The translations under genes and the position numbers were made by a program. Below, piece after piece: positions 38,908-52,594 of a stretch of DNA of 64,000 nucleotides. A model generated the notes under the pieces. That model was given only the letters and a program-made list of their open reading frames with translations, was not told the DNA's origin and did no database searches. The stretch covers positions 83,554 through 147,553 of the IMG/VR virus record IMGVR_UViG_3300009151_000035; one strand, given 5' to 3'. The first letter of the stretch is position 1, and the number at the start of each line of letters is the position of its first letter. This DNA comes from a virus.

Positions 38908-38936
38908 TTGACCAATAATTGCCAATTTGCTATAAT
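38908..38936 (+). promoter_or_regulatory. early sigma70 promoter 3
   Basis: TTGACC-17-TATAAT with extended TG. Confidence 0.85.
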
Positions 38937-38981
38937 ACACACATAGACAGCAAAGTTCAACAGCACACTAAGGAGCCAACC

Positions 38982-40010
38982 ATGAGTGCAATTCGTATCG
39001 TTCGCGGCGTTTACCGCAACAAAACTGTTCAAAACCAAGTGTTCAACTTGGTGAGCGGGTTTCAAACTGGTGCCAAAGGTGGCTATGTCACCGTGCAAAA
39101 TGATGGTACCTTTCCCAACTGCCCTGATGCCATCCGCATCAAGGTAGAAAACATTTCGGACATTGAGTATACTTCAGGAGAGCATGTGCAAGAAAACACT
39201 GTAAAGTTCAAGCCCACTGTGGTGGCAGAGACCGATGAGCAAGCCATGGATCGTATCCGTGAGCGCTTTGATATCCTGCATGAGATGACCAAGGCCTGCG
39301 TGAGCGGCGACATCCGTGCTATGATTGTGAGTGGCCCTCCTGGCGTGGGCAAGAGCTATGGTGTGGAGCAAGAGATTGACAAGGCCTGTTTGTTTGACAA
39401 GCTGGCTAGCAAACGCCTTAAGGCCGAGGTTGTTAAAGGTTCGGCCAGTCCCATTGGCCTGTACCAGACCCTGTACAAGTATTCAGATCCCAATTGTGTG
39501 TTGGTGTTTGATGACTGTGACTCAATCCTGTTGGATGACGTTGCTCTTAACTTGCTAAAGGGTGCCCTGGACTCTGGCAAGAAGCGCAAGATCTCCTGGT
39601 TGTCAGACAGTCGCATTCTGCGAAGCGAAGGCATTCCGGACAGTTTTGAGTTCAAGGGTTCGGTAATTTTTATTACCAACTTGAAGTTTGATACCATGCG
39701 CTCGCAAAAATTGCGGGACCACTTGGATGCATTGCAGAGCCGGTGCCACTACTTGGACTTGACACTTGACACCATGCGTGACAAGGTGTTGCGTATCAAG
39801 CAGATTGCCAAGGACGGTGTGTTGTTTGCAGACTACGACTTTGACGAGTGTGTGCAAGACGAGATCATCGCCTTCATGGACGAGAATAAAAATCGTTTGC
39901 GTGAGATGAGTTTGCGTATGGCGTTGAAGATTGCAGACTTGCGCAAGATGTCAGTATTGAACTGGAAGCGCCTGGCAGAGACCACTGTTATGAAACCCGC
40001 AGGAGCCTAA
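38982..40010 (+). CDS. AAA-type P-loop ATPase
   Basis: Walker A GPPGVGKS, Walker B VLVFDD, ITN, AL.SR; TAAGGAG RBS fixes start at 38982. Confidence 0.85.
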   Translation: MSAIRIVRGVYRNKTVQNQVFNLVSGFQTGAKGGYVTVQNDGTFPNCPDAIRIKVENISDIEYTSGEHVQENTVKFKPTVVAETDEQAMDRIRERFDILHEMTKACVSGDIRAMIVSGPPGVGKSYGVEQEIDKACLFDKLASKRLKAEVVKGSASPIGLYQTLYKYSDPNCVLVFDDCDSILLDDVALNLLKGALDSGKKRKISWLSDSRILRSEGIPDSFEFKGSVIFITNLKFDTMRSQKLRDHLDALQSRCHYLDLTLDTMRDKVLRIKQIAKDGVLFADYDFDECVQDEIIAFMDENKNRLREMSLRMALKIADLRKMSVLNWKRLAETTVMKPAGA

Positions 40011-40459: not shown

Positions 40460-41317
40460 ATGCCGCAACACCTGCTGATACATCTAAGCCAAGGCCTAGA
40501 ACTACAATTTCAAATACGACCAACTCCGCTTGCTGAGTTGTGGGTTGAGCGTATGCATGCCCGCGGCAGTTATCCTTTAGACCATCCAGATCGATTTTAC
40601 GGCTTTGGTTCTTGTTTGGAAGAGCGCCAGCGTGCCGAACTTATGATCCAACAATGTATCAAAACAATCAACCAACATGATACCATAATTGAGCGTGAGT
40701 TTGATTGGAGCCAAGACAGTCTCAATTACATGCACAACATTTTTGAACGCTTTCACGGTCTGCTAGATCAACAAACATCAGAATACTGGCAACAGGCGCC
40801 TGTGGCTGTGAGACAGGCACTGGCTGAATTGAATCTGGCTGTGCATAGATGTGAAATTGTGCTCGAAGGTGCTCAACCAAGACTTGTTTGCACTTGGTTT
40901 GGCATGCCCAAAACAAAAACACTCGAGCCTTACCAACTCATGCAATGGGGAGAAACGCAAATTAAATTTGGAACTGTGTATCTCAACTATTGTGAAATTG
41001 GAAAAACAGTTGAGGACTTGGCGCACGATAACGATGCATATATAGGTGACGAAGCATTCCGCCCATTCAGTCATTACAGTGCCGATTTCAATGTGGCCTT
41101 CTTTGATCAAGATCTAATTTCTAAAGAGCCAAGAATGCAACAATATATTGAGCAACATCGAGATTTTTTTCTTGCTCATCATATAACAAATGTGTATAAT
41201 GCAAGAGCACGACCCTTGCGTTTTCCTGTTGCAGATTTGGAATTCGCAGGTGATACCAACGAACTTATAACACAAATAGCACGCCAGCAACGGGTGCTTG
41301 AAGTAAACATACAATGA
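40460..41317 (+). CDS. hypothetical protein
   Basis: 285 aa; LN..H..FE..H, LN..VH..E His/Glu pattern. Confidence 0.65.
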   Translation: MPQHLLIHLSQGLELQFQIRPTPLAELWVERMHARGSYPLDHPDRFYGFGSCLEERQRAELMIQQCIKTINQHDTIIEREFDWSQDSLNYMHNIFERFHGLLDQQTSEYWQQAPVAVRQALAELNLAVHRCEIVLEGAQPRLVCTWFGMPKTKTLEPYQLMQWGETQIKFGTVYLNYCEIGKTVEDLAHDNDAYIGDEAFRPFSHYSADFNVAFFDQDLISKEPRMQQYIEQHRDFFLAHHITNVYNARARPLRFPVADLEFAGDTNELITQIARQQRVLEVNIQ

Positions 41318-42783
41318 AAAGATGCACCATACAGATTCGAGATGAAGTAAACATCAAGCTAGAGGGCATTGACTTGGATGTGCGCAAGGCTCTGGTCAAT
41401 GCGTTCAAGTATGATGTGCCGTATGCAAGATACCTACCAGCAGTGAGGCTGGGAAGGTGGGATGGCAAAGTCAGTTACTTCCAACTGGGCGGTAGCACAT
41501 ATACCAATCTCCTGCCAGAGATCATGCCCATCCTAGAACGCTACAACTACGACATCGAATTGGATGATCAAAGAGACTACTCAACTACATTTGAGTTTGC
41601 TCAAGTTACCGAACAAACATTTGCACACAAGACTTGGCCCAAAGGACATCCTGCTGAAGGACAGCCTATCTTGTTGCGCGACTATCAGGTGGAGATTGTG
41701 AACAACTTCTTAACCAATCCGCAATGCATACAGGAAGTGGCCACAGGTGCAGGCAAGACCATAATGACAGCAGCCTTGAGTGCCAGCGTCGAGCCATATG
41801 GCAGGTCAATTGTGATTGTGCCCAACAAGAGTCTTGTGACACAAACAGAAAAAGATTATGTGAATCTTGGCCTGGATGTGGGTGTTTACTTTGGCGATAG
41901 AAAAGAACATGGTTGTACACACACCATCTGCACTTGGCAGAGTCTTAATGTACTACTGAAGAATACCAAGGCAGGCATAGGTGAAGCCACCATCCAGGAC
42001 TTTATTGAAGATGTGGTATGTGTGATGGTAGACGAAGTACACATGGCCAAAGCGGATGCACTCAAAACACTGTTGACCACGGTGATGGCTAGAGTGCCAA
42101 TTCGTTGGGGTTTGACTGGTACTGTGCCCAAAGAGAAGTTTGAAAGCCAAGCACTGTTGGTCAGCCTTGGACCGGTTATCAGCAAACTGTCAGCCAATGA
42201 ACTACAACAACAAGGGGTGCTGGCGCAGTGCCATGTGAACATTGTGCAGTTGCAAGATCACGTGGAATACTCCAACTACCAAAGCGAGCTTAAATACCTG
42301 TTGGAAGAGTCGGGCAGACTAGATGCTATGAGTGAACTCATACGCCATGTGAATGAAACAGGCAACACACTTGTATTAGTAGACAGAACTGAGTGTGGTC
42401 GACAACTTGTTGCAAGACTAGGTGACAAATCTGTATTTGTTAGCGGTGCAACAAAAGGAACAAAAAGACAAGAAGAATATGACGAAGTGGCTGACAGCGT
42501 TGATAAGATTATTGTGGCTACCTATGGTGTTGCCGCTGTGGGTATTAATATCCCTAGGATTTTTAATTTGGTTCTTGTGGAGCCCGGGAAAAGTTTTGTC
42601 CGCGTTATCCAAAGTATTGGACGTGGGATAAGAAAAGCCGAAGACAAAGATCATGTTCAAATTTGGGATGTGACTTCCACTTGCAAATTTGCCAAGCGTC
42701 ACTTGACCAAGCGCAAACAATTCTACAAAGAAGCCAACTACCCCTTTACTCAGGAAAAATTAGAATGGATGAAAATAAAATAA
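41314..42783 (+). CDS. uvsW: SF2 DNA helicase UvsW
   Basis: WDGK, LRDYQ, ATGAGKT, VDEVH, GLTGT, QSIGRG.R. Confidence 0.92.
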   Translation: MKRCTIQIRDEVNIKLEGIDLDVRKALVNAFKYDVPYARYLPAVRLGRWDGKVSYFQLGGSTYTNLLPEIMPILERYNYDIELDDQRDYSTTFEFAQVTEQTFAHKTWPKGHPAEGQPILLRDYQVEIVNNFLTNPQCIQEVATGAGKTIMTAALSASVEPYGRSIVIVPNKSLVTQTEKDYVNLGLDVGVYFGDRKEHGCTHTICTWQSLNVLLKNTKAGIGEATIQDFIEDVVCVMVDEVHMAKADALKTLLTTVMARVPIRWGLTGTVPKEKFESQALLVSLGPVISKLSANELQQQGVLAQCHVNIVQLQDHVEYSNYQSELKYLLEESGRLDAMSELIRHVNETGNTLVLVDRTECGRQLVARLGDKSVFVSGATKGTKRQEEYDEVADSVDKIIVATYGVAAVGINIPRIFNLVLVEPGKSFVRVIQSIGRGIRKAEDKDHVQIWDVTSTCKFAKRHLTKRKQFYKEANYPFTQEKLEWMKIK

Positions 42784-43457
42784 CCATTGCAGTGTGTGGC
42801 GAAAGTCATTGTGCGGCATGCACAGAGGAATTGAAATATGTAGGTAGTCGTGCTCACTTTAGTCAAATTCTTGAAGATCATTATGGATACAAAGTTTTGC
42901 ATTTTGCGCATGGTGGATTCAGCAACACCGGAATATTATTTCAATTGCAAGAAGCAGTAAAGCACCGGCCTAATGCAATTGTTTATCATACAACCTGGGC
43001 AAGTCGAATTACAATTCGAACAAACAATCAATTTTTTCCTGAGATGGGGTTGAAAAATTTTGTATATTTTAATCCGCATATGGTTAGTACACATGAGCCC
43101 TGGGCCGGCAATTTAAATGCTCCAATTTTGAGTACAGTAGCTGAAGGATTGGAAAATCGTTCCATAGTCTCCCCAGAGAAAATTCAGGCTGTCAAACAGT
43201 ATATGACGGAGTTGTTTGATTATGATCTACAACAAACACTAGACAATTGGTTGTTTGAATACTGGCATGACAGAATTGCTAACGCTGGAATTTTACCATT
43301 GTGTTTTGCTGCCGAGGATATTGGCAAAGTTGCTATTGACTTTAGCGGAGCCAATCCAACATTTGACTCGCCGTTTCATACAGACCGTGCCACACAAGAA
43401 CAAGTGGCTGCAAATATTCATCGCAAAGTCATTGACAATCTGCCACAAATCAAGTAA
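42765..43457 (+). CDS. SGNH-like protein
   Basis: VCGESH, A.GGFSN, C-terminal FHT; diverged. Confidence 0.5.
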   Translation: MDENKITIAVCGESHCAACTEELKYVGSRAHFSQILEDHYGYKVLHFAHGGFSNTGILFQLQEAVKHRPNAIVYHTTWASRITIRTNNQFFPEMGLKNFVYFNPHMVSTHEPWAGNLNAPILSTVAEGLENRSIVSPEKIQAVKQYMTELFDYDLQQTLDNWLFEYWHDRIANAGILPLCFAAEDIGKVAIDFSGANPTFDSPFHTDRATQEQVAANIHRKVIDNLPQIK

Positions 43458-43466: not shown

Positions 43467-43967
43467 ATGAGAATACTTACACTAGACAATGCCACCTACG
43501 ATTTAGATCACCTGCCTGAAGAAGTAGATGACATGCGTTTTGCAATATTAGACAATTCAAATCCAGCAGAACCTGACTATCATTTTATACCATTGATCTT
43601 TTTAGAGAGCTTTAACGCTCCTGCACTTGTGCTACGCATTGGAGAGCACACCATAAAGATGCCCATGGACTGGCAGATTTTAATTGGTGAACCTGATGTA
43701 GGCGACTTGGAAGTGTTGCCACTAACGTCAATAAATGACCGTGGCTTCAAAGTATTCCAGTTCAATCCCTTGACCAGTTTCCGTCCCAGCTTTCCAGAAA
43801 TTGAAATCCTAGATGTGTATCATGAGGTATCATGGTATGCACCCAAACTCAAGAACGGTCAACTATTGGCTGTGCCTGTAAGTGACGGGGCAGATCCTGA
43901 CTGTGTGTATTTTGTGAAAGACGTCAGTCGCAATTGCGAGATTGTGGACTATAACAAGGCCTGGTAA
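43467..43967 (+). CDS. hypothetical protein
   Basis: 166-aa ORF behind own promoter. Confidence 0.7.
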   Translation: MRILTLDNATYDLDHLPEEVDDMRFAILDNSNPAEPDYHFIPLIFLESFNAPALVLRIGEHTIKMPMDWQILIGEPDVGDLEVLPLTSINDRGFKVFQFNPLTSFRPSFPEIEILDVYHEVSWYAPKLKNGQLLAVPVSDGADPDCVYFVKDVSRNCEIVDYNKAW

Positions 43968-44396: not shown

Positions 44397-44854
44397 GCGA
44401 TAAATTACATATCAGCAACGAAATGTGTCAACTGGATCTCAAGAATAGAGATTTTTATGACGAGCTCACTCCTGAAGAACGCAAGAAGTTTTCAACGTTC
44501 TTGATGATTCGTTGGAGCTCGGCTGTGCAAGTAGGCAATTCATCTAGAGACAAAAATATAGAACAATACTATTTGCAATCTTGTAATGAAAATCTCAACA
44601 AGCATTTTTTTGCCATCAGCAAACATCCCAAATTGCAATGGTTGTTGGCTACCACAGTTGGTCCAGGGGTAGGCGAATATAGACATCCGTGGATTGCTCC
44701 TAAGAAAAAACAACCAGGCGCCAGTGCCAAACGCAAAGCATTGACAGCAATGTATCCGCACTACAAAGACGACGAAATAGAAGTAATGATGCAGATTGTG
44801 TCAGACAAAGAAATCAAACAATACATTAAAGACTCTGGCGAAGATCCCAAATGA
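44393..44854 (+). CDS. possible clamp-loader small subunit (gp62-like)
   Basis: FLMIRW.S...NE..N...HP.LQW...W...KK pattern; replication context. Confidence 0.4.
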   Translation: MSDKLHISNEMCQLDLKNRDFYDELTPEERKKFSTFLMIRWSSAVQVGNSSRDKNIEQYYLQSCNENLNKHFFAISKHPKLQWLLATTVGPGVGEYRHPWIAPKKKQPGASAKRKALTAMYPHYKDDEIEVMMQIVSDKEIKQYIKDSGEDPK

Positions 44855-45522
44855 CACAGTGCCAATACTGCAAGAAAGATTTTGTCAAAGAAACTTCGTT
44901 GGCAGTGCATGTGTGTGAGCCCAAACGGCGTAGACAGGAACGAGCAGAGCGTGGTGTGGAACTGGGCTTTCAAGCCTACATACGTTTTTATGAAATGAGC
45001 CAAGGGTCAGCTAAACTTAAAACGTTTGATGACTTTGCAGACTCACCTTACTATCGCGCATTTGTGAAGTTTGGCCGCTATTGTGTGAGCACAAGAACCA
45101 TCAACCCCAAACAGTTTCTTGAGTGGCTGTTGAAGAACAACAAAAAGATCGACCGCTGGGCATCAGATCAACTGTACACAGAATATCTCATACAGCATTT
45201 GCCCGTGGAGAATGTGAACGATGCACTAGCACGAGCAGTGGAGTTTGGCATGGACTGGGCAGAGAAGAATTCAGCACAGCCACAGGACTGTTTGAGATAT
45301 GGCAGCACCGCAGCCATGTGCTATGCAGTCACAACAGGCAGGATATCACCTTGGGTGATTTACAATTCAGAGTCAGGGCAAAAGTTCTTGGGTGAACTCA
45401 CTCCTGATCAGATCAGCATGGTATGGCCTTACATTGACTCAGATGTGTGGCAGAAAAAGTTTCACAATTATCCTGCTGATCAGGAATACGCCAAAGACAT
45501 ATTGAGCAAGGCAGGGTGGTAA
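44851..45522 (+). CDS. hypothetical protein with N-terminal Zn finger
   Basis: CQYC..F...H.C; GRISPW. Confidence 0.6.
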   Translation: MTQCQYCKKDFVKETSLAVHVCEPKRRRQERAERGVELGFQAYIRFYEMSQGSAKLKTFDDFADSPYYRAFVKFGRYCVSTRTINPKQFLEWLLKNNKKIDRWASDQLYTEYLIQHLPVENVNDALARAVEFGMDWAEKNSAQPQDCLRYGSTAAMCYAVTTGRISPWVIYNSESGQKFLGELTPDQISMVWPYIDSDVWQKKFHNYPADQEYAKDILSKAGW

Positions 45523-45523
45523 C

Positions 45524-45892
45524 ATGGCAACAGTGATATTTTTAACACTCATACTCCTACAGATCAAACACTGGTACATTGACTTTGTGGATCAAGATAT
45601 GGTAGAAGTCAGGCACAAAGGCATCTACGGTCACTGGCTGGGCATGCGACACAGTCTCAAACACGGTATTGGTACCGCTGCCTGTGTGGGCTTGGTAGTA
45701 GGTCCTGCATATTGGCCAGCCAGCATTATGATGGGCGTGATAGACGCTGTGGCTCACTATCACATTGATTGGGCCAAAATGAACTGGGGCAATCGAGACC
45801 TTCAGAATCCCAGCTTCTGGGCACATCTAGGCCTGGATCAGATGGCACATCAGTTGACTTACATTGGCCTTGTGGCTATAATTGCATTATGA
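45524..45892 (+). CDS. DUF3307-like membrane protein
   Basis: KH..IDF..Q, H..HG, HYHIDW.K, GLDQ.AH. Confidence 0.7.
   Translation: MATVIFLTLILLQIKHWYIDFVDQDMVEVRHKGIYGHWLGMRHSLKHGIGTAACVGLVVGPAYWPASIMMGVIDAVAHYHIDWAKMNWGNRDLQNPSFWAHLGLDQMAHQLTYIGLVAIIAL
45854..45882 (+). promoter_or_regulatory. sigma70 promoter inside upstream gene, leaderless geometry
   Basis: TTGACT-17-TATAAT, ATG at 45889 6 nt downstream. Confidence 0.75.
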
Positions 45893-46248
45893 TTAGAAAT
45901 ATTAGCGGCAGCAAATACATTCAAGTGTCTGGTGGCATGCACACCAATCCATACATCAGTCCAGGTGCCAGCGGTGCAGGCATGGTACGATGGAGCGCCA
46001 GCATGAACTGTTTGGAAATTAATGACGGCAACTCCTGGCAACAACTTCACTCATCACATCCTATGATCGCTCTCTCATCAGATGCCGAAACCCTGTTGGA
46101 TTGGGCGCGAGCCAAGCGTGATGAAGAATGGCGCATTGCTGCCCTGGCAGCCGAGCATCCCACAGTGGCAGATGCCTTGGCAGCAATGCAACTGGCCCGA
46201 GAAAAACTGCAAGTGGTGATTGCACTTTGCGATACTACTACTAAATGA
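45889..46248 (+). CDS. hypothetical protein
   Basis: ATGA coupling on both sides; G.VRW......E..DG..W. Confidence 0.6.
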   Translation: MIRNISGSKYIQVSGGMHTNPYISPGASGAGMVRWSASMNCLEINDGNSWQQLHSSHPMIALSSDAETLLDWARAKRDEEWRIAALAAEHPTVADALAAMQLAREKLQVVIALCDTTTK

Positions 46249-46823
46249 GCGCAGACATTGACATCGATGTGCCGGACAGATCGGCTGTGTTGAAACTGAT
46301 TCAACACACTGCCGCACGGCAACTGCATCAAGGTCAAGTGCGTAGACACAATTCAGGTATCTATATCACAGACATTCCTCGAGACATACCCAACGGCTGT
46401 GCAGCCATAGACTATGAGTCAGCAGAACAGCGTGGATACTTCAAGATAGACCTGTTGAACATGAGTGTGTATCAGTTGATCCGTGATCCTGCACACTATG
46501 TAGAAATGCTGGCAGCCACGCCACCGTGGCAGAGACTGTGGACTGATATTGCTTGGGCTAGTCAGCTAGTGCATGTGGGAAATTACACAGACTTGATGGT
46601 GTCCATGCAGCCAGATTCTATTCCCAGAATGGCAGCATTTATTTCGGTTATTCGCCCTGGCAAAGCACACTTGCAGAATCGCCCCTGGGCTGACGTGTTT
46701 GCTGAAGTATGGAATGGGGATGATTCGCGTGGATACACATTCAAAAAGTCGCACAGTATAAGTTACGCTGCCTTGGTAGCATTACACATGAACTTGCTCA
46801 ATCAAGACGCCGCACAAGTGTGA
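46245..46823 (+). CDS. miniature DNA polymerase III alpha (family C) catalytic-core-like protein
   Basis: DIDID, HNSG, KIDLL, IRPG, GYTFKKSH..SY in DnaE order within 192 aa. Confidence 0.75.
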   Translation: MSADIDIDVPDRSAVLKLIQHTAARQLHQGQVRRHNSGIYITDIPRDIPNGCAAIDYESAEQRGYFKIDLLNMSVYQLIRDPAHYVEMLAATPPWQRLWTDIAWASQLVHVGNYTDLMVSMQPDSIPRMAAFISVIRPGKAHLQNRPWADVFAEVWNGDDSRGYTFKKSHSISYAALVALHMNLLNQDAAQV

Positions 46824-47175
46824 TTGATTTTCGTTTGGTTTTCTTGCGAGCGATGTCCATCAAACTGCAAGCTGGTCCGTGCAAAATTTCTAGGTCTTTG
46901 TTAGAAAAGGTGCGTAAGGTAGGACGAAACTTATCCCATTCACCACGCAAGAAGATGTTTATAGGTATACTACGATTGCTTTCCCACCACCAAGTGGCTG
47001 CTAATTCCAAATATTCTAGCTTGAGATCTTGTGTTAGTATAGCACCAAAATCATAGATGGTTGTGACAGCATCATCTCTATTTTGCACCACACCTACGTA
47101 TTCTTCGTTGGCATACACGCACAGAGTTATAAACGGATATTTCACCGCCAGCTTTTGAAAGATATCATTACCCAT
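46798..47175 (-). CDS. hypothetical protein
   Basis: YPF, EYVG, WWWESNR.IPIN.FL; 125 aa. Confidence 0.7.
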   Translation of the reverse strand: MGNDIFQKLAVKYPFITLCVYANEEYVGVVQNRDDAVTTIYDFGAILTQDLKLEYLELAATWWWESNRSIPINIFLRGEWDKFRPTLRTFSNKDLEILHGPACSLMDIARKKTKRKSITLVRRLD

Positions 47176-48297: not shown

Positions 48298-49281
48298 ATG
48301 CTTGACATCCTTGCGTATCTACCTGCCAAAAGAAAACCCACACCATCAGGTTGGTCGAGTTTCAATGCGGTCTGCTGCCAGCACAATGGCAGCACTAAAG
48401 ACACAAGAGGACGTGGCGGACTCAAAGCCACAGAGGCAGGCTGGAGTTATCACTGTTTCAATTGTGCCTACACAGCCAGTTTTATCATGGGCAGGACTCT
48501 AAGTGTCAAAGCTCGTAGACTGCTGTCGTGGATGGGTGTGCCGGATAATGAGATTGAAATGCTCAATCTTGAAAGTCTGCGGCATCGTAGTATCCATGGC
48601 ATCCTGGAAGATCGACAACAGGCTTGGAATCAACTGAACGGCATCACATTTGAAGAACGAGACTTGCCACCATATGCTGAATTGCTAACACCAGGTCACA
48701 AGCAATACTGGGATTATGTGCGTGGTAGACGTGTGCCTGAAGATTTTCCCATGATGTTGCAGATAAAAAATGATGGCATTCATTGGACACGCCCGCATGT
48801 GGTTATACCATTCACCTACGATAACAAAATTGTAGGATACACTTGCAGGTTCTTAGACAACAAGCAACCCAAGTTCATTTCAGACAGTCAGCCAGGCTAT
48901 GTGTTTGGCACAGATTTACAACACAACAACTGGACCAACGTGATAGTTACAGAAGGCATATTTGATGCACTCAGCATTGGTGGTGTGGCTGTGATGCATA
49001 ATACCATAAGTGACGCACAAGCTAGATTGATACGTAACTTGAGTCGAGACATAACTGTGGTACCTGATCAAGACCTAGCAGGTGTAGAATTGATTGATCG
49101 TGCTGTTGAGTTGGGTTGGGCGGTAAGTATACCTGAGTGGCCGGAAGGCTGTAAAGATGTCAATGATGCTGTGATTGTGCTAGGGCGTATTGGCACATTA
49201 CTAACTATAATGGCAGCCAGAGAAACTAGCAAGATCAAGATAGAACTAAGGAAGAAACAACTTGTTAAAAAAATACAGTAA
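48298..49281 (+). CDS. DNA primase (gp61-like)
   Basis: Zn ribbon CC.H...HCFNC; TOPRIM EGIFDA, DQD..G, KDVND. Confidence 0.88.
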   Translation: MLDILAYLPAKRKPTPSGWSSFNAVCCQHNGSTKDTRGRGGLKATEAGWSYHCFNCAYTASFIMGRTLSVKARRLLSWMGVPDNEIEMLNLESLRHRSIHGILEDRQQAWNQLNGITFEERDLPPYAELLTPGHKQYWDYVRGRRVPEDFPMMLQIKNDGIHWTRPHVVIPFTYDNKIVGYTCRFLDNKQPKFISDSQPGYVFGTDLQHNNWTNVIVTEGIFDALSIGGVAVMHNTISDAQARLIRNLSRDITVVPDQDLAGVELIDRAVELGWAVSIPEWPEGCKDVNDAVIVLGRIGTLLTIMAARETSKIKIELRKKQLVKKIQ

Positions 49282-50068
49282 ACTCTGGGTATTTGGTGAC
49301 AGCTATACCGCTCCATTCTTCCACGTTAAACCTGCAGATAGTTTCTGGGGCCTGGCTGCTCAAGCACTAGAGGCAAACACAGTAATGAATTGCTCACGCA
49401 TAGGAAATAGTTTTGCATCTGTTCAACAGCTATTGATAGGAATGTCTGAAGAAATTGACTGGTATAATGACATGATATTTGTAGGCATTCCGCCGTTGGA
49501 GCGTATTACTGTTTTTGATGAGGATGTAGACACGCTATACCAGGGACACAATTTCAATACCAGCACCTGGCAAGTTGACCCATTTGAGATTCCTGAACAT
49601 CGTGGACTGGTTAGCATGCAAAATTTTGGTGGCGACCGAGAATTGATCCTGCACAGCAATCGCAGATGGATTGAAACAGAAGCACTGCGTCAAATTTTTT
49701 TACTAACACAATGGCTAGATAGCTTCAACGCTAATTACATGATCATAAATCTCAGTAGAAATTTTGACCACGTTGACGATTGGGAGCCTGGCCGAGTAGT
49801 TTCGACCTATTGCAAAGAGCACAAAAAATGCATTGTGTTTGACAAAACCTATTACAACATAAACATTGGAGTGAACCGCCCAGCAGACTCTGACGCACCA
49901 GGAGGGCATCACGGACCAGAAGGCAATCGCTATTTTTTCAAAAAATCGTTGTTACCAAAACTTCAACAATGTTACACACAGCGCACTCAACCACCAACAC
50001 CCGCTGAAGCATTAGATACACTTACTGCATACTTGGAATTTATTCATGCTAAAAGATTACGGACTTGA
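49262..50068 (+). CDS. SGNH-like protein
   Basis: VFGDSYT, N.S..GNS, GHHGPEG; TTG start. Confidence 0.6.
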   Translation: MLKKYSKLWVFGDSYTAPFFHVKPADSFWGLAAQALEANTVMNCSRIGNSFASVQQLLIGMSEEIDWYNDMIFVGIPPLERITVFDEDVDTLYQGHNFNTSTWQVDPFEIPEHRGLVSMQNFGGDRELILHSNRRWIETEALRQIFLLTQWLDSFNANYMIINLSRNFDHVDDWEPGRVVSTYCKEHKKCIVFDKTYYNINIGVNRPADSDAPGGHHGPEGNRYFFKKSLLPKLQQCYTQRTQPPTPAEALDTLTAYLEFIHAKRLRT

Positions 50069-51494
50069 TGTCCAACGCCTATTTCTAGAAATGATGTTGG
50101 AGGACGCACAGAGTTATGTGCGTGTTCAAAACATCTACAACCCGCAGAACTTTGACAAGAGTTTGAGACCTGCGGCTGAGTTTATCAAAGAACACTCAGA
50201 CAACCATAAGACCTTACCAGACCGCATGCAAATTTCAGCCACCACAGGCGTTAAATTGGCAGCCGTACCGGACTTGAATGAAGGACACTTTGACTGGTTC
50301 ATGGGCGAGTTTGAAGCATTTACTCGACGCCAGGAACTAGAGCGAGCTATTTTAAAAGCCGCAGACCTGCTTGAAAAAGGCGAATATGATCCGGTTGAAA
50401 AACTCATCAAAGATGCAGTGCAAATATCGCTTACCAAAGACATGGGCACAGATTACTTTGCTGATCCCAAGAGTCGCATTGAGAAATACTTCAACTCAGG
50501 CGGACAAGTAAGCACAGGTTGGCCGCAACTGGATCGACTGCTGTATGGCGGATTCAGTCGTGGTGAACTCAATATCTTTGCCGGGGGATCAGGATCAGGC
50601 AAATCACTTGTGATGATGAACATTGCTCTAAACTGGCTACAGCAAGGACTAAGTGGTGTATACATCACGCTAGAACTTTCAGAAGAACTTACTAGCTTGC
50701 GAACTGATGCTATGTTGACCAACATGAGCACCAAGGACATTCGCAAGGACATTGATACTACAGAACTCAAGGTCAAACTGGTGGCCAAGAAGTCAGGTAA
50801 CTATCAAGTAAAAGGCTTGCCTGCACAAAGCAACATCAATGACATTCGTGCTTATTTAAAAGAGTATCAAATTCAAACAGGCAAGCGAGTAGACTTTGTA
50901 ATGATTGACTACTTGGACTTGCTGATGCCTGTGAGTGCCAAAGTCTCGCCCAATGACTTGTTTGTAAAGGACAAGTATGTGAGTGAAGAACTGCGCAACT
51001 TGGCCAAAGAGCTGGGTATCTTGATGGTAACAGCATCGCAGTTGAATCGATCAGCGGTGGAAGAAATTGAATTTGATCACAGCCATATATCAGGTGGTAT
51101 TTCAAAGATTAACACAGCAGATAATGTGTTTGGTATTTTTACAAGTCGTGCAATGAAAGAGCGTGGCAAGTATCAGATCCAGTGTATGAAGTCTCGAAGC
51201 TCGACCGGCGTTGGTCAAAAGATTGATTTGGAGTACAACATTGAAACCATGCGCATTACTGATGAAGGCGGGGATGATAACGAAAACGGGTTTAGCAAAA
51301 AGCCCAGCTCAAGTATCATGGACTCGATCAAAGCAAAAAGCCAAGTTAGTGCAGCCGCCGCAGATGATGCCAAGGCTCCACCTTGGGACCGACCACAGGC
51401 CCGAGAAGGTTTTGACATAGAAACACCCAAGGTCACAGCAGATGTACAGAGCGCTAAACTCAAACAGTTATTAGGCAAGATCAAGACATCATGA
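50046..51494 (+). CDS. replicative helicase (gp41/DnaB family)
   Basis: STGW..LD, GGSGSGKS, TLELSE, IDYLDL, TASQLNR, KSR. Confidence 0.93.
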   Translation: MLKDYGLDVQRLFLEMMLEDAQSYVRVQNIYNPQNFDKSLRPAAEFIKEHSDNHKTLPDRMQISATTGVKLAAVPDLNEGHFDWFMGEFEAFTRRQELERAILKAADLLEKGEYDPVEKLIKDAVQISLTKDMGTDYFADPKSRIEKYFNSGGQVSTGWPQLDRLLYGGFSRGELNIFAGGSGSGKSLVMMNIALNWLQQGLSGVYITLELSEELTSLRTDAMLTNMSTKDIRKDIDTTELKVKLVAKKSGNYQVKGLPAQSNINDIRAYLKEYQIQTGKRVDFVMIDYLDLLMPVSAKVSPNDLFVKDKYVSEELRNLAKELGILMVTASQLNRSAVEEIEFDHSHISGGISKINTADNVFGIFTSRAMKERGKYQIQCMKSRSSTGVGQKIDLEYNIETMRITDEGGDDNENGFSKKPSSSIMDSIKAKSQVSAAAADDAKAPPWDRPQAREGFDIETPKVTADVQSAKLKQLLGKIKTS

Positions 51495-52594
51495 GCAAAT
51501 ATTGCCCTAGGATACATCATGGATTAATGCTGGCCGAAATTAACAGACAATCACTATCATACTCGGTGTGTTGTTGGGCCGACCAGTTAATTCGTACATC
51601 AGATCAAGTTAATTTTTTTCATCCAAACTTAGCTCAACTGCGTGTTGAAAATCAACAAGATACTTTACCAAAATCTTTCTGTGCTAAGTGTATTGTACAG
51701 GAAAATTCAAACAAAAAAAGCATGCGATTGGGTTACCTCGAAACGCATGGCAAAGAAACATACGATTCAAGCATTCAGTATCTCGACGTCAATATTGACT
51801 ATACATGCAATTTGGCTTGTGTAACGTGCGGTCCAGAGTTAAGCACTACCTGGAGGAACGAACTTGGGATAAAAGGCATTGACGTTAGACCCAATATAGA
51901 CAATTTTATAAAAACAAAACTACACACACTTGACCTTTCCCGCTTGCGAGAAATTCGCATGTGGGGCGGCGAGCCATTTTTAACACTAACTCACAAACAA
52001 ATATTACAACATTTAATTGAGCATGTAGATGTGAGTCAAATTACATTGATGTATAATACCAATGGCACGCAACGCATTGATCAATCAACCAAGGAACTTA
52101 TTGAAAAATTTAAATTTGCTCGAATAAGTTTTAGCATTGATGGCATAGGCAATCAATTTGAATATTTGCGGTATCCAGCCAAGTGGAATGAAGTTGAAGA
52201 AAATTTGTTTTGGTGGCAAAAAAACTTGCCTCACAATAGTATGTTATCGTTGACTGTAACTGCTAGTATTTTGAATATTTTGAGACTTGACGATGTGTGC
52301 AATTGGCACAAACAACACTTTTCAAAATCTGTATTTGGTGATGACATTGAAATATACATACATCAAGCATTTGGTATATACGGCTTAGAATCCATGCCTG
52401 ACGCCATGATTGAGTATTTAATATCCAAACTTGACTATTGTCAGCCTTGGATACAACAATTGAAAATTTTAGGAACACAAAAATATAACTTGAAAAAAGT
52501 CCTAGAACAATTACAAAAGAATGATCATCGCCGAAACTTAAATATGGCGGCGGTCTTTCCAGAAGTTGCTGCCTTTATAAATTATCAAAAATAA
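51491..52594 (+). CDS. radical SAM protein with N-terminal auxiliary Cys domain
   Basis: CNLACVTC, WGGEP; YCPRI.H...VCC...CAKC. Confidence 0.9.
   Translation: MSKYCPRIHHGLMLAEINRQSLSYSVCCWADQLIRTSDQVNFFHPNLAQLRVENQQDTLPKSFCAKCIVQENSNKKSMRLGYLETHGKETYDSSIQYLDVNIDYTCNLACVTCGPELSTTWRNELGIKGIDVRPNIDNFIKTKLHTLDLSRLREIRMWGGEPFLTLTHKQILQHLIEHVDVSQITLMYNTNGTQRIDQSTKELIEKFKFARISFSIDGIGNQFEYLRYPAKWNEVEENLFWWQKNLPHNSMLSLTVTASILNILRLDDVCNWHKQHFSKSVFGDDIEIYIHQAFGIYGLESMPDAMIEYLISKLDYCQPWIQQLKILGTQKYNLKKVLEQLQKNDHRRNLNMAAVFPEVAAFINYQK

Follow-up and report, generated by a model that had tools for sequence, protein, structure and literature searches.

Organization of the locus

The window analyzed here is a stretch of 64,000 nucleotides (positions 83,554 to 147,553 of the IMG/VR record IMGVR_UViG_3300009151_000035) from an uncultured giant (T4-like) phage. 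The phage is represented by a 147.5-kb IMG/VR contig, which was judged to be 42% complete. The gene under study encodes a protein of 192 aa, which we call the C-unit (Table 1). The first-pass annotation, which was made from the sequence alone, had described it as an intact ORF, coupled to the preceding one, with five motifs in the order in which they occur in DnaE. This description holds in all points. The ORF begins with the ATG that comes first behind a stop codon, and the frame stays open through all 192 aa; at 46245-46248 the ATG shares an ATGA with the TGA of the upstream ORF. The motifs are DIDID (residues 4-8), HNSG (35-38), KIDLL (67-71), IRPG (136-139) and GYTFKKSH (163-170), the last of which is followed by SISY. 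Residues D4 and D6 (plus D8) are located on strand 5-9, while K67 and D69 are on strand 68-72. The segment R137-P138-G-K140 comes after the latter strand, and the finger motif consists of F166-K-K-S-H170.

Table 1. Genes around the C-unit in the window, and the genes that flank the N-unit in the complete relative G001.
Feature	Position	Strand	Size, match or remark
Probable AAA+ ATPase	38919-40010	+	363 aa; phrog_1250, E 4.6e-84
UvsW-type SF2 DNA helicase	41314-42783	+	phrog_16, E 7e-70
ORF flanking replication genes	42663-43457	+	~230-270 aa; no PHROG match
166-aa module gene	43467-43967	+	phrog_11279; no Pfam match
Upstream module gene	44851-45522	+	phrog_11058; N-terminal Cys/His zinc-finger-like motif
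Small DUF3307 membrane protein	45524-45892	+	Pfam 24.1 bits; phrog_2470
C-unit (putative Mg2+-/template-binding half of a split minimal DNA polymerase III alpha-like enzyme)	46245-46823	+	192 aa
Convergent gene	46798-47175	-	125 aa; phrog_11637, "unknown function"
DnaG/gp61-type DNA primase	48298-49281	+	phrog_47, E 1.9e-29
ORF flanking replication genes	49262-50068	+	~230-270 aa; no PHROG match
DnaB/gp41-like replicative helicase	50046-51494	+	phrog_19, E 4.4e-70
Radical SAM domain protein	51491-52594	+	phrog_14086, E 1.8e-13
N-unit flanking genes in G001	L087:878-1276 and L087:2003-2620	- and -	

The neighborhood was compared with those in the cultured phages PA5oct and Atu_ph07 and with the complete genome of a relative, G001, which has 364,404 bp and terminal repeats. 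The C-unit of G001 is 94% identical to ours at the protein level, and the genome is collinear with the contig at 70-83% nucleotide identity. The primase and the helicase that had been noticed near the C-unit gene are both present downstream of it, and a UvsW-type helicase gene lies upstream; in PA5oct the primase gene occupies the same position. A gp62-like gene had also been proposed, and a search with PF16790 (Phage_clamp_A), which is a weak test for a divergent protein, gave no match in the contig or in G001. The 3' ends of the C-unit gene and of the convergent gene overlap by 26 nt. This arrangement recurs in PA5oct and Atu_ph07, and also beside a fused gene on the metagenome scaffold L104 that is described below. 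Both PA5oct and Atu_ph07 have genes of the same size as the phrog_11058 gene upstream of their C-units, and the phrog_11279 gene has the same place in the module of both phages.

Several other genes belong to the same region. The product of the gene at the left end of Table 1 has the Walker A motif GPPGVGKS and is probably an AAA+ ATPase that opens the replication module. The gene for the small DUF3307 membrane protein is situated between the phrog_11058 gene and the C-unit gene, and the radical SAM gene follows directly downstream of the DnaB-like helicase gene with a 4-nt overlap. One of the two ORFs that flank replication genes (49262-50068) begins with ...KLWVFGDSYTAPF, a sequence that resembles a GDSL/SGNH hydrolase motif.

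Homology to family C DNA polymerases

A phmmer search of the PDB with the single C-unit sequence gave no match, and a family profile was needed. In Pfam the protein stayed below every cut-off, including the gathering score of PF07733 (DNA_pol3_alpha); the best NCBIfam match (E 0.74) was also below the cut-off, and a megablast search of the C-unit locus against cultured phages gave no match. Among the PHROGs, phrog_11778 ("DNA polymerase", 197 positions) matches the C-unit end to end with an E value of 2.9e-50; residues 3-188 of the protein correspond to positions 7-194 of this profile. A weak match was obtained with the DnaE-type phrog_405 (1190 positions), at positions 579-681 and 784-809.

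Next to these searches we used a profile built from 81 homologs of the C-unit. It matched Pol III alpha from E. coli (2hnh) with an E value of 4.4e-6, and the matches to the E. coli, Thermus and Mycobacterium enzymes ranged from 4e-6 to 9e-5. In the profile alignment KiDlL falls on KFDFLG of the E. coli protein (D555), RP on RPG (640-641) and FKKSH on FNKSH (about 760). Profile positions 9-54 bridge E. coli residues of about 406-538, and positions 141-150 bridge residues 642-738. Because phrog_11778 matches over the full length and the family profile matches E. coli Pol III alpha, the motifs in the C-unit reflect homology and not chance. The C-unit is a fragment of a family C polymerase, homologous to the DxD, second palm segment and finger motifs of DnaE/PolC.

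The bacterial replicative enzymes of family C to which the C-unit is closest are Pol III alpha from E. coli (2hnh, 5fkw), the enzyme from Thermus aquaticus (3e0d, 2hpi), DnaE1 from M. tuberculosis (5lew) and PolC (3f2b). The Asp triad D4/D6/D69 of the C-unit is equivalent to D401/D403/D555 of E. coli. Common to the C-unit and the bacterial proteins are furthermore the Lys before the third Asp, the RPG motif and the F-x-K-S-H finger motif. The earlier assignment of these motifs to the palm and fingers of Pol III alpha, with all three catalytic Asp residues, thus agrees with the profile alignment as well as with the structure alignment described in the following section.

Predicted structure and missing parts

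The AlphaFold (AF2) model of the C-unit has a pLDDT of 96.2 and a pTM of 0.88. In a Foldseek search with this model the top 16 matches were all family C polymerases. VIA-align placed the model on PolC (3f2b, residues 970-1296) with a Z score of 9.9 over 190 aa (3.8 A), on the Thermus enzyme (3e0d, 460-841) with 9.6 over 190 aa, on the M. tuberculosis enzyme (5lew, 418-808) with 9.4 over 189 aa and on the E. coli enzyme (2hnh, 399-781) with 8.3 over 185 aa. The next unrelated fold had a Z score of 3.9 over 44 aa. Only DnaE and PolC, with Z scores of 8.3-9.9, therefore rise above the noise when the prediction is compared with the Pol III alpha palm, as the annotation had proposed to check.

Residue 1 of the model aligns with residue 399 of 2hnh. 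The alignment ranges show that the C-unit as a whole is the counterpart of a DnaE segment that begins at the catalytic DxD and ends at the KSH of the fingers, at half the length of that segment. The estimate that this segment is roughly twice as long in DnaE was accurate; the 192 residues of the C-unit cover E. coli 399-781, and about 190 residues of that segment are missing. The ranges also agree with the proposal that the deletions fall between the motifs and that the ends are not truncated. Of the missing residues, about 90 belong between the DxD and HxxG strands and another 90 or so between RPG and KSH. In the E. coli structure, which Lamers et al. reportedly described in 2006, the thumb is said to comprise residues 433-510, and this places it in the first of these gaps. 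Missing from the C-unit are the thumb and a large part of the fingers, with a large finger insertion among the lost segments. In line with this, the search with PF17657 gave no match, and a thumb together with a full finger domain in one chain of more than 900 aa is absent here.

Bacterial DnaE and PolC also contain PHP, clamp-binding, HhH and OB domains, whereas the C-unit has none of them. Neither the contig nor the complete relative G001 has a match to PF02811 (PHP domain); the same search gave a match in 14 out of 14 control genomes.

Conservation, selection and distribution

A protein that retains about half of the residues of the matching DnaE segment could be the decaying remnant of a former full-length DnaE gene. 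The conservation of the C-unit contradicts this reading. In an alignment of 81 diverse homologs D4, D6, K67, D69 and P138 are invariant, and D8, H35, G38, R137, K140, K167 and H170 are conserved in at least 90%. Comparison with IMG/VR orthologs (52 pairs) gave a median dN/dS of 0.088 and a maximum of 0.148, and the length is exactly 192 aa in 61 of the 73 orthologs. The C-unit is under strong purifying selection.

All of the best 150 out of 350 family representatives are no longer than 375 aa; a search for homologs among proteins of 337-2000 aa yielded only an unrelated 397-aa chimera and no long relative of the C-unit. Since full-length relatives were not found, and since dN/dS values and length both indicate conservation, we conclude that this gene is not a neutrally decaying copy with full-length homologs. 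The chance that it is a remnant of a larger gene is in our view negligible.

The family has a very wide distribution among uncultured large phages. Its metagenomic members form 7393 clusters at 90% identity and 350 at 50%, and a member is present on more than 590 IMG/VR stretches. A tblastn search found the C-unit in 96 records of cultured jumbo phages, always with about 190 aa and with 27-41% identity. The carriers include PA5oct, Atu_ph07, the RaK2/121Q/PBECO4/GAP32/CBB group and phages of Xanthomonas and Stenotrophomonas.

A separate gene for the other half of the palm

The C-unit begins only 3 residues ahead of the first catalytic Asp. Because it starts at the DxD, it is devoid of one half of the pol-beta-like palm, the one that comes first and in DnaE contains the GS motif for binding of the triphosphate. 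A small protein with such a motif (GVGRGS), the N-unit, is encoded in PA5oct, Atu_ph07, G001, G003 and G004, with a length of 169-177 aa. The N-unit of PA5oct is a 169-aa ORF that ends with ...GVGRGSSVAS...IKEFLK, and a distance of 43 kb separates it from the C-unit gene. Atu_ph07 has an N-unit ORF of 177 aa. In G001 it has 172 aa and lies about 97 kb from the C-unit gene. The N-unit of G001 reaches PF07733 even on its own (26.8 bits, with a cut-off of 23.9). A gene of ~200 aa upstream of the N-unit is conserved in G001, G003 and G004, and in G001 a GroES-like gene of 132 aa is found downstream of it (Table 1).

On the 147.5-kb contig (42% complete) an N-unit was not found by motif scan, genome search or tblastn; the tblastn queries were the N-units of PA5oct and Atu_ph07, and the best hit had an E value above 1. 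As the contig is collinear with G001, the N-unit gene, like the gene for the family B polymerase, probably lies beyond the end of the contig. The gene at 43467-43967 (phrog_11279) was considered as an N-unit for reasons of synteny and was rejected, as it lacks a GS motif and resembles none of the N-units. The adjacent ORFs, which had been suggested for co-folding, do not include the partner; in G001 it is encoded about 97 kb away.

Four lines of evidence suggest that the N- and C-units work together. Among cultured phages 96 records have a C-unit, compared with 93 that have an N-unit, and the spread over hosts is the same. A natural fusion, P0161, is encoded on a metagenome scaffold; its 375 aa are made up of an N-unit, 10 aa and a C-unit, and it matches PF07733 with 59.6 bits in a continuous manner over the junction. 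This protein (L104:1066-2193) is the sole fused form among the best 150 of the 350 representatives and comes from one 2.4-kb contig. The point of the split is constant throughout the C-unit family. Finally, a co-fold of the C-unit from the window with the N-unit of G001 had an ipSAE of 0.90, compared with 0.01 for the best control; the mark applied to this score is attained by 58 of 80 solved complexes and by 2 of 110 mismatched pairs. Contacts agreed between runs to at least 96%, and the pLDDT of the partners was at least 89.

In the co-fold, residues 2-10 of the C-unit contact residues 133-146 of the N-unit, which include the GVGRGSS loop, and its C-terminus (165-172). Such contacts are as expected for two chains that would rebuild one continuous palm. 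The pair resembles a single chain of the solved DnaE structures, and for this reason the good score of the co-fold may in part reflect that likeness.

These data bear on the question of whether the C-unit could be a self-sufficient miniature polymerase or nucleotidyltransferase, that is, whether its 192 aa alone are a complete catalytic core. Such a reading could appeal to the fact that one chain holds the finger motifs together with all three Asp residues that bind metal, and to the confident folding of the protein by itself (pLDDT 96). It is contradicted by the finding that the GS-motif half of the pol-beta fold is a separate conserved gene, by the almost strict co-occurrence of the two units and the existence of a fusion, and by the position of the GS loop on strand 2-10 of the C-unit in the co-fold. 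We therefore consider a complete core in one small chain very unlikely. The first-pass annotation had named the protein a miniature polymerase core; the idea of a self-contained core has to be abandoned, since the GS-motif half is carried by another gene. Among the options which it offered, the subunit of a split polymerase is the one that the N-unit gene, the fusion and the co-fold favor. Its description as a selected minimal nucleotidyltransferase is correct in one part, because the C-unit is a DnaE-like fragment under selection (dN/dS 0.088), and fails in the other, because the fragment has only half a palm.

A family B polymerase in the same lineage

A search of the 147.5-kb contig (42% complete) did not reveal a family B polymerase (PF00136). 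If taken by itself, this could mean that the enzyme formed with the C-unit is the main replicase of the phage and that the family B polymerase was replaced in this lineage. The relatives of the phage contradict such a replacement. G001 encodes a family B polymerase of 907 aa (103 bits), PA5oct and MIJ3 carry a PolB (PMC6892783), and according to Iyer et al. (2021, PMC7824862) PolB occurs throughout the jumbo phages of group 2.2. Because the lineage keeps a family B polymerase, the C-unit very probably does not replace gp43; a role as the main replicase is highly improbable.

Proposed function of the split enzyme

We consider it likely that the C-unit is one part of the split, minimal Pol III alpha-like enzyme found in jumbo phages of group 2.2, and that this enzyme performs accessory templated synthesis beside PolB. 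In this model the C-unit alone would provide only half of an active site. The N-unit of ~170 aa would end, with ...GVGRGSS...EFLR, right before the point where the C-unit starts, and it would supply a helix-loop whose GS motif holds the triphosphate of the dNTP. The N-unit is predicted to dock non-covalently on strand 2-10 of the C-unit. The resulting heterodimer of about 364 aa would rebuild a two-metal nucleotidyltransferase with a pol-beta fold, in which D4, D6 and D69 presumably bind two Mg2+ ions and K67 and the RPGK and KKSH motifs may contact the nucleotide and the template. The most plausible activity would be a short-patch, Mg2+-dependent and template-directed synthesis of DNA, as in primer extension, gap filling or repair. 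The heterodimer would act beside the family B replicase and not in its place. Since the enzyme has no thumb and no recognizable clamp-binding module, stable binding of a primer-template is not obvious.

The lack of a thumb and of clamp-binding and OB modules could also indicate that the two chains form an active enzyme which is not a templated DNA polymerase. It might carry out template-independent tailing of DNA or RNA ends, or synthesize a nucleotide product for the conflict between phage and host. The superfamily with the pol-beta fold includes many non-polymerase nucleotidyltransferases, and with the PolB of G001 the lineage already has a replicase. The ~364-aa enzyme would then be a specialized nucleotidyltransferase within the replication module of T4-like jumbo phages, e.g. 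for clamp-independent primer extension or tailing, or for a nucleotide product other than DNA. On the other hand, RPG and FxKSH, which in DnaE serve the template and the incoming nucleotide, are among the best conserved positions. Furthermore, all structural neighbors above noise are replicative family C polymerases, and the C-unit gene is inside a conserved helicase-primase-helicase module. On balance it is unlikely that the two chains make a nucleotidyltransferase of this kind, and we favor accessory templated synthesis as the function of the split enzyme.

Comparison with known systems

A split enzyme of this type has already been described. Iyer, Anantharaman, Krishnan, Burroughs and Aravind (2021, Viruses 13:63, section 3.4.1 and Fig. 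3b; PMC7824862) reported that group 2.2 jumbo phages have PolB plus a phage-specific minimal Pol III alpha. The latter consists of an N-terminal NTP-binding protein and a C-terminal Mg2+-/template-binding protein, which are encoded by distant genes; synthesis of one strand or repair was suggested as its role (PMC7824862). In size (~190 aa), in its start at the DxDxD strand and in its conserved motifs the C-unit agrees with the published family. It also has the same neighborhood, with a UvsW-type helicase upstream and a convergent small gene, a structural gene, the primase and the DnaB-like helicase downstream. In the collinear relative G001 the N-unit gene is remote and a PolB is present, and the phage of the window probably agrees with the published family in these two features as well. 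The differences are that the copy in the window is from a fragment of an uncultured phage, that it has 27-41% identity to the members from cultured phages, and that its contig is without an N-unit. Nothing in the anatomy of the C-unit departs from the published description. The split arrangement was published in 2021, and the C-unit from the window adds one more, uncultured member.

A search of the literature gave no experimental paper on any member of the split Pol III alpha family, and the omics paper on PA5oct does not mention the C-unit gene. An independent confirmation of the published description comes here from the predicted structure and the selection analysis, and also from the natural fusion and the co-fold. 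The C-unit family, which is strongly conserved, is the smallest known version of the fold of the bacterial replicative polymerase, and the active site of the split Pol III alpha appears to be assembled from two chains. Should this enzyme be a true templated polymerase, it would function without a thumb and be much smaller than any other polymerase of family C. The copy in the window provides well-behaved sequences for biochemistry.

The split enzyme differs from the family C polymerases of bacteria, in which the palm is part of one chain; here it is divided between two polypeptides. A different solution is found in the jumbo phages of group 3.2 (phage G and c-st); according to Iyer et al. (2021, PMC7824862) their DnaE is full-length and includes a PHP domain. 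Both this protein and the C-unit are family C catalytic modules carried by jumbo phages. However, the DnaE of group 3.2 is host-like, consists of a single chain of more than 1000 aa and is the only replicase, whereas the C-unit is minimal, split and found beside PolB.
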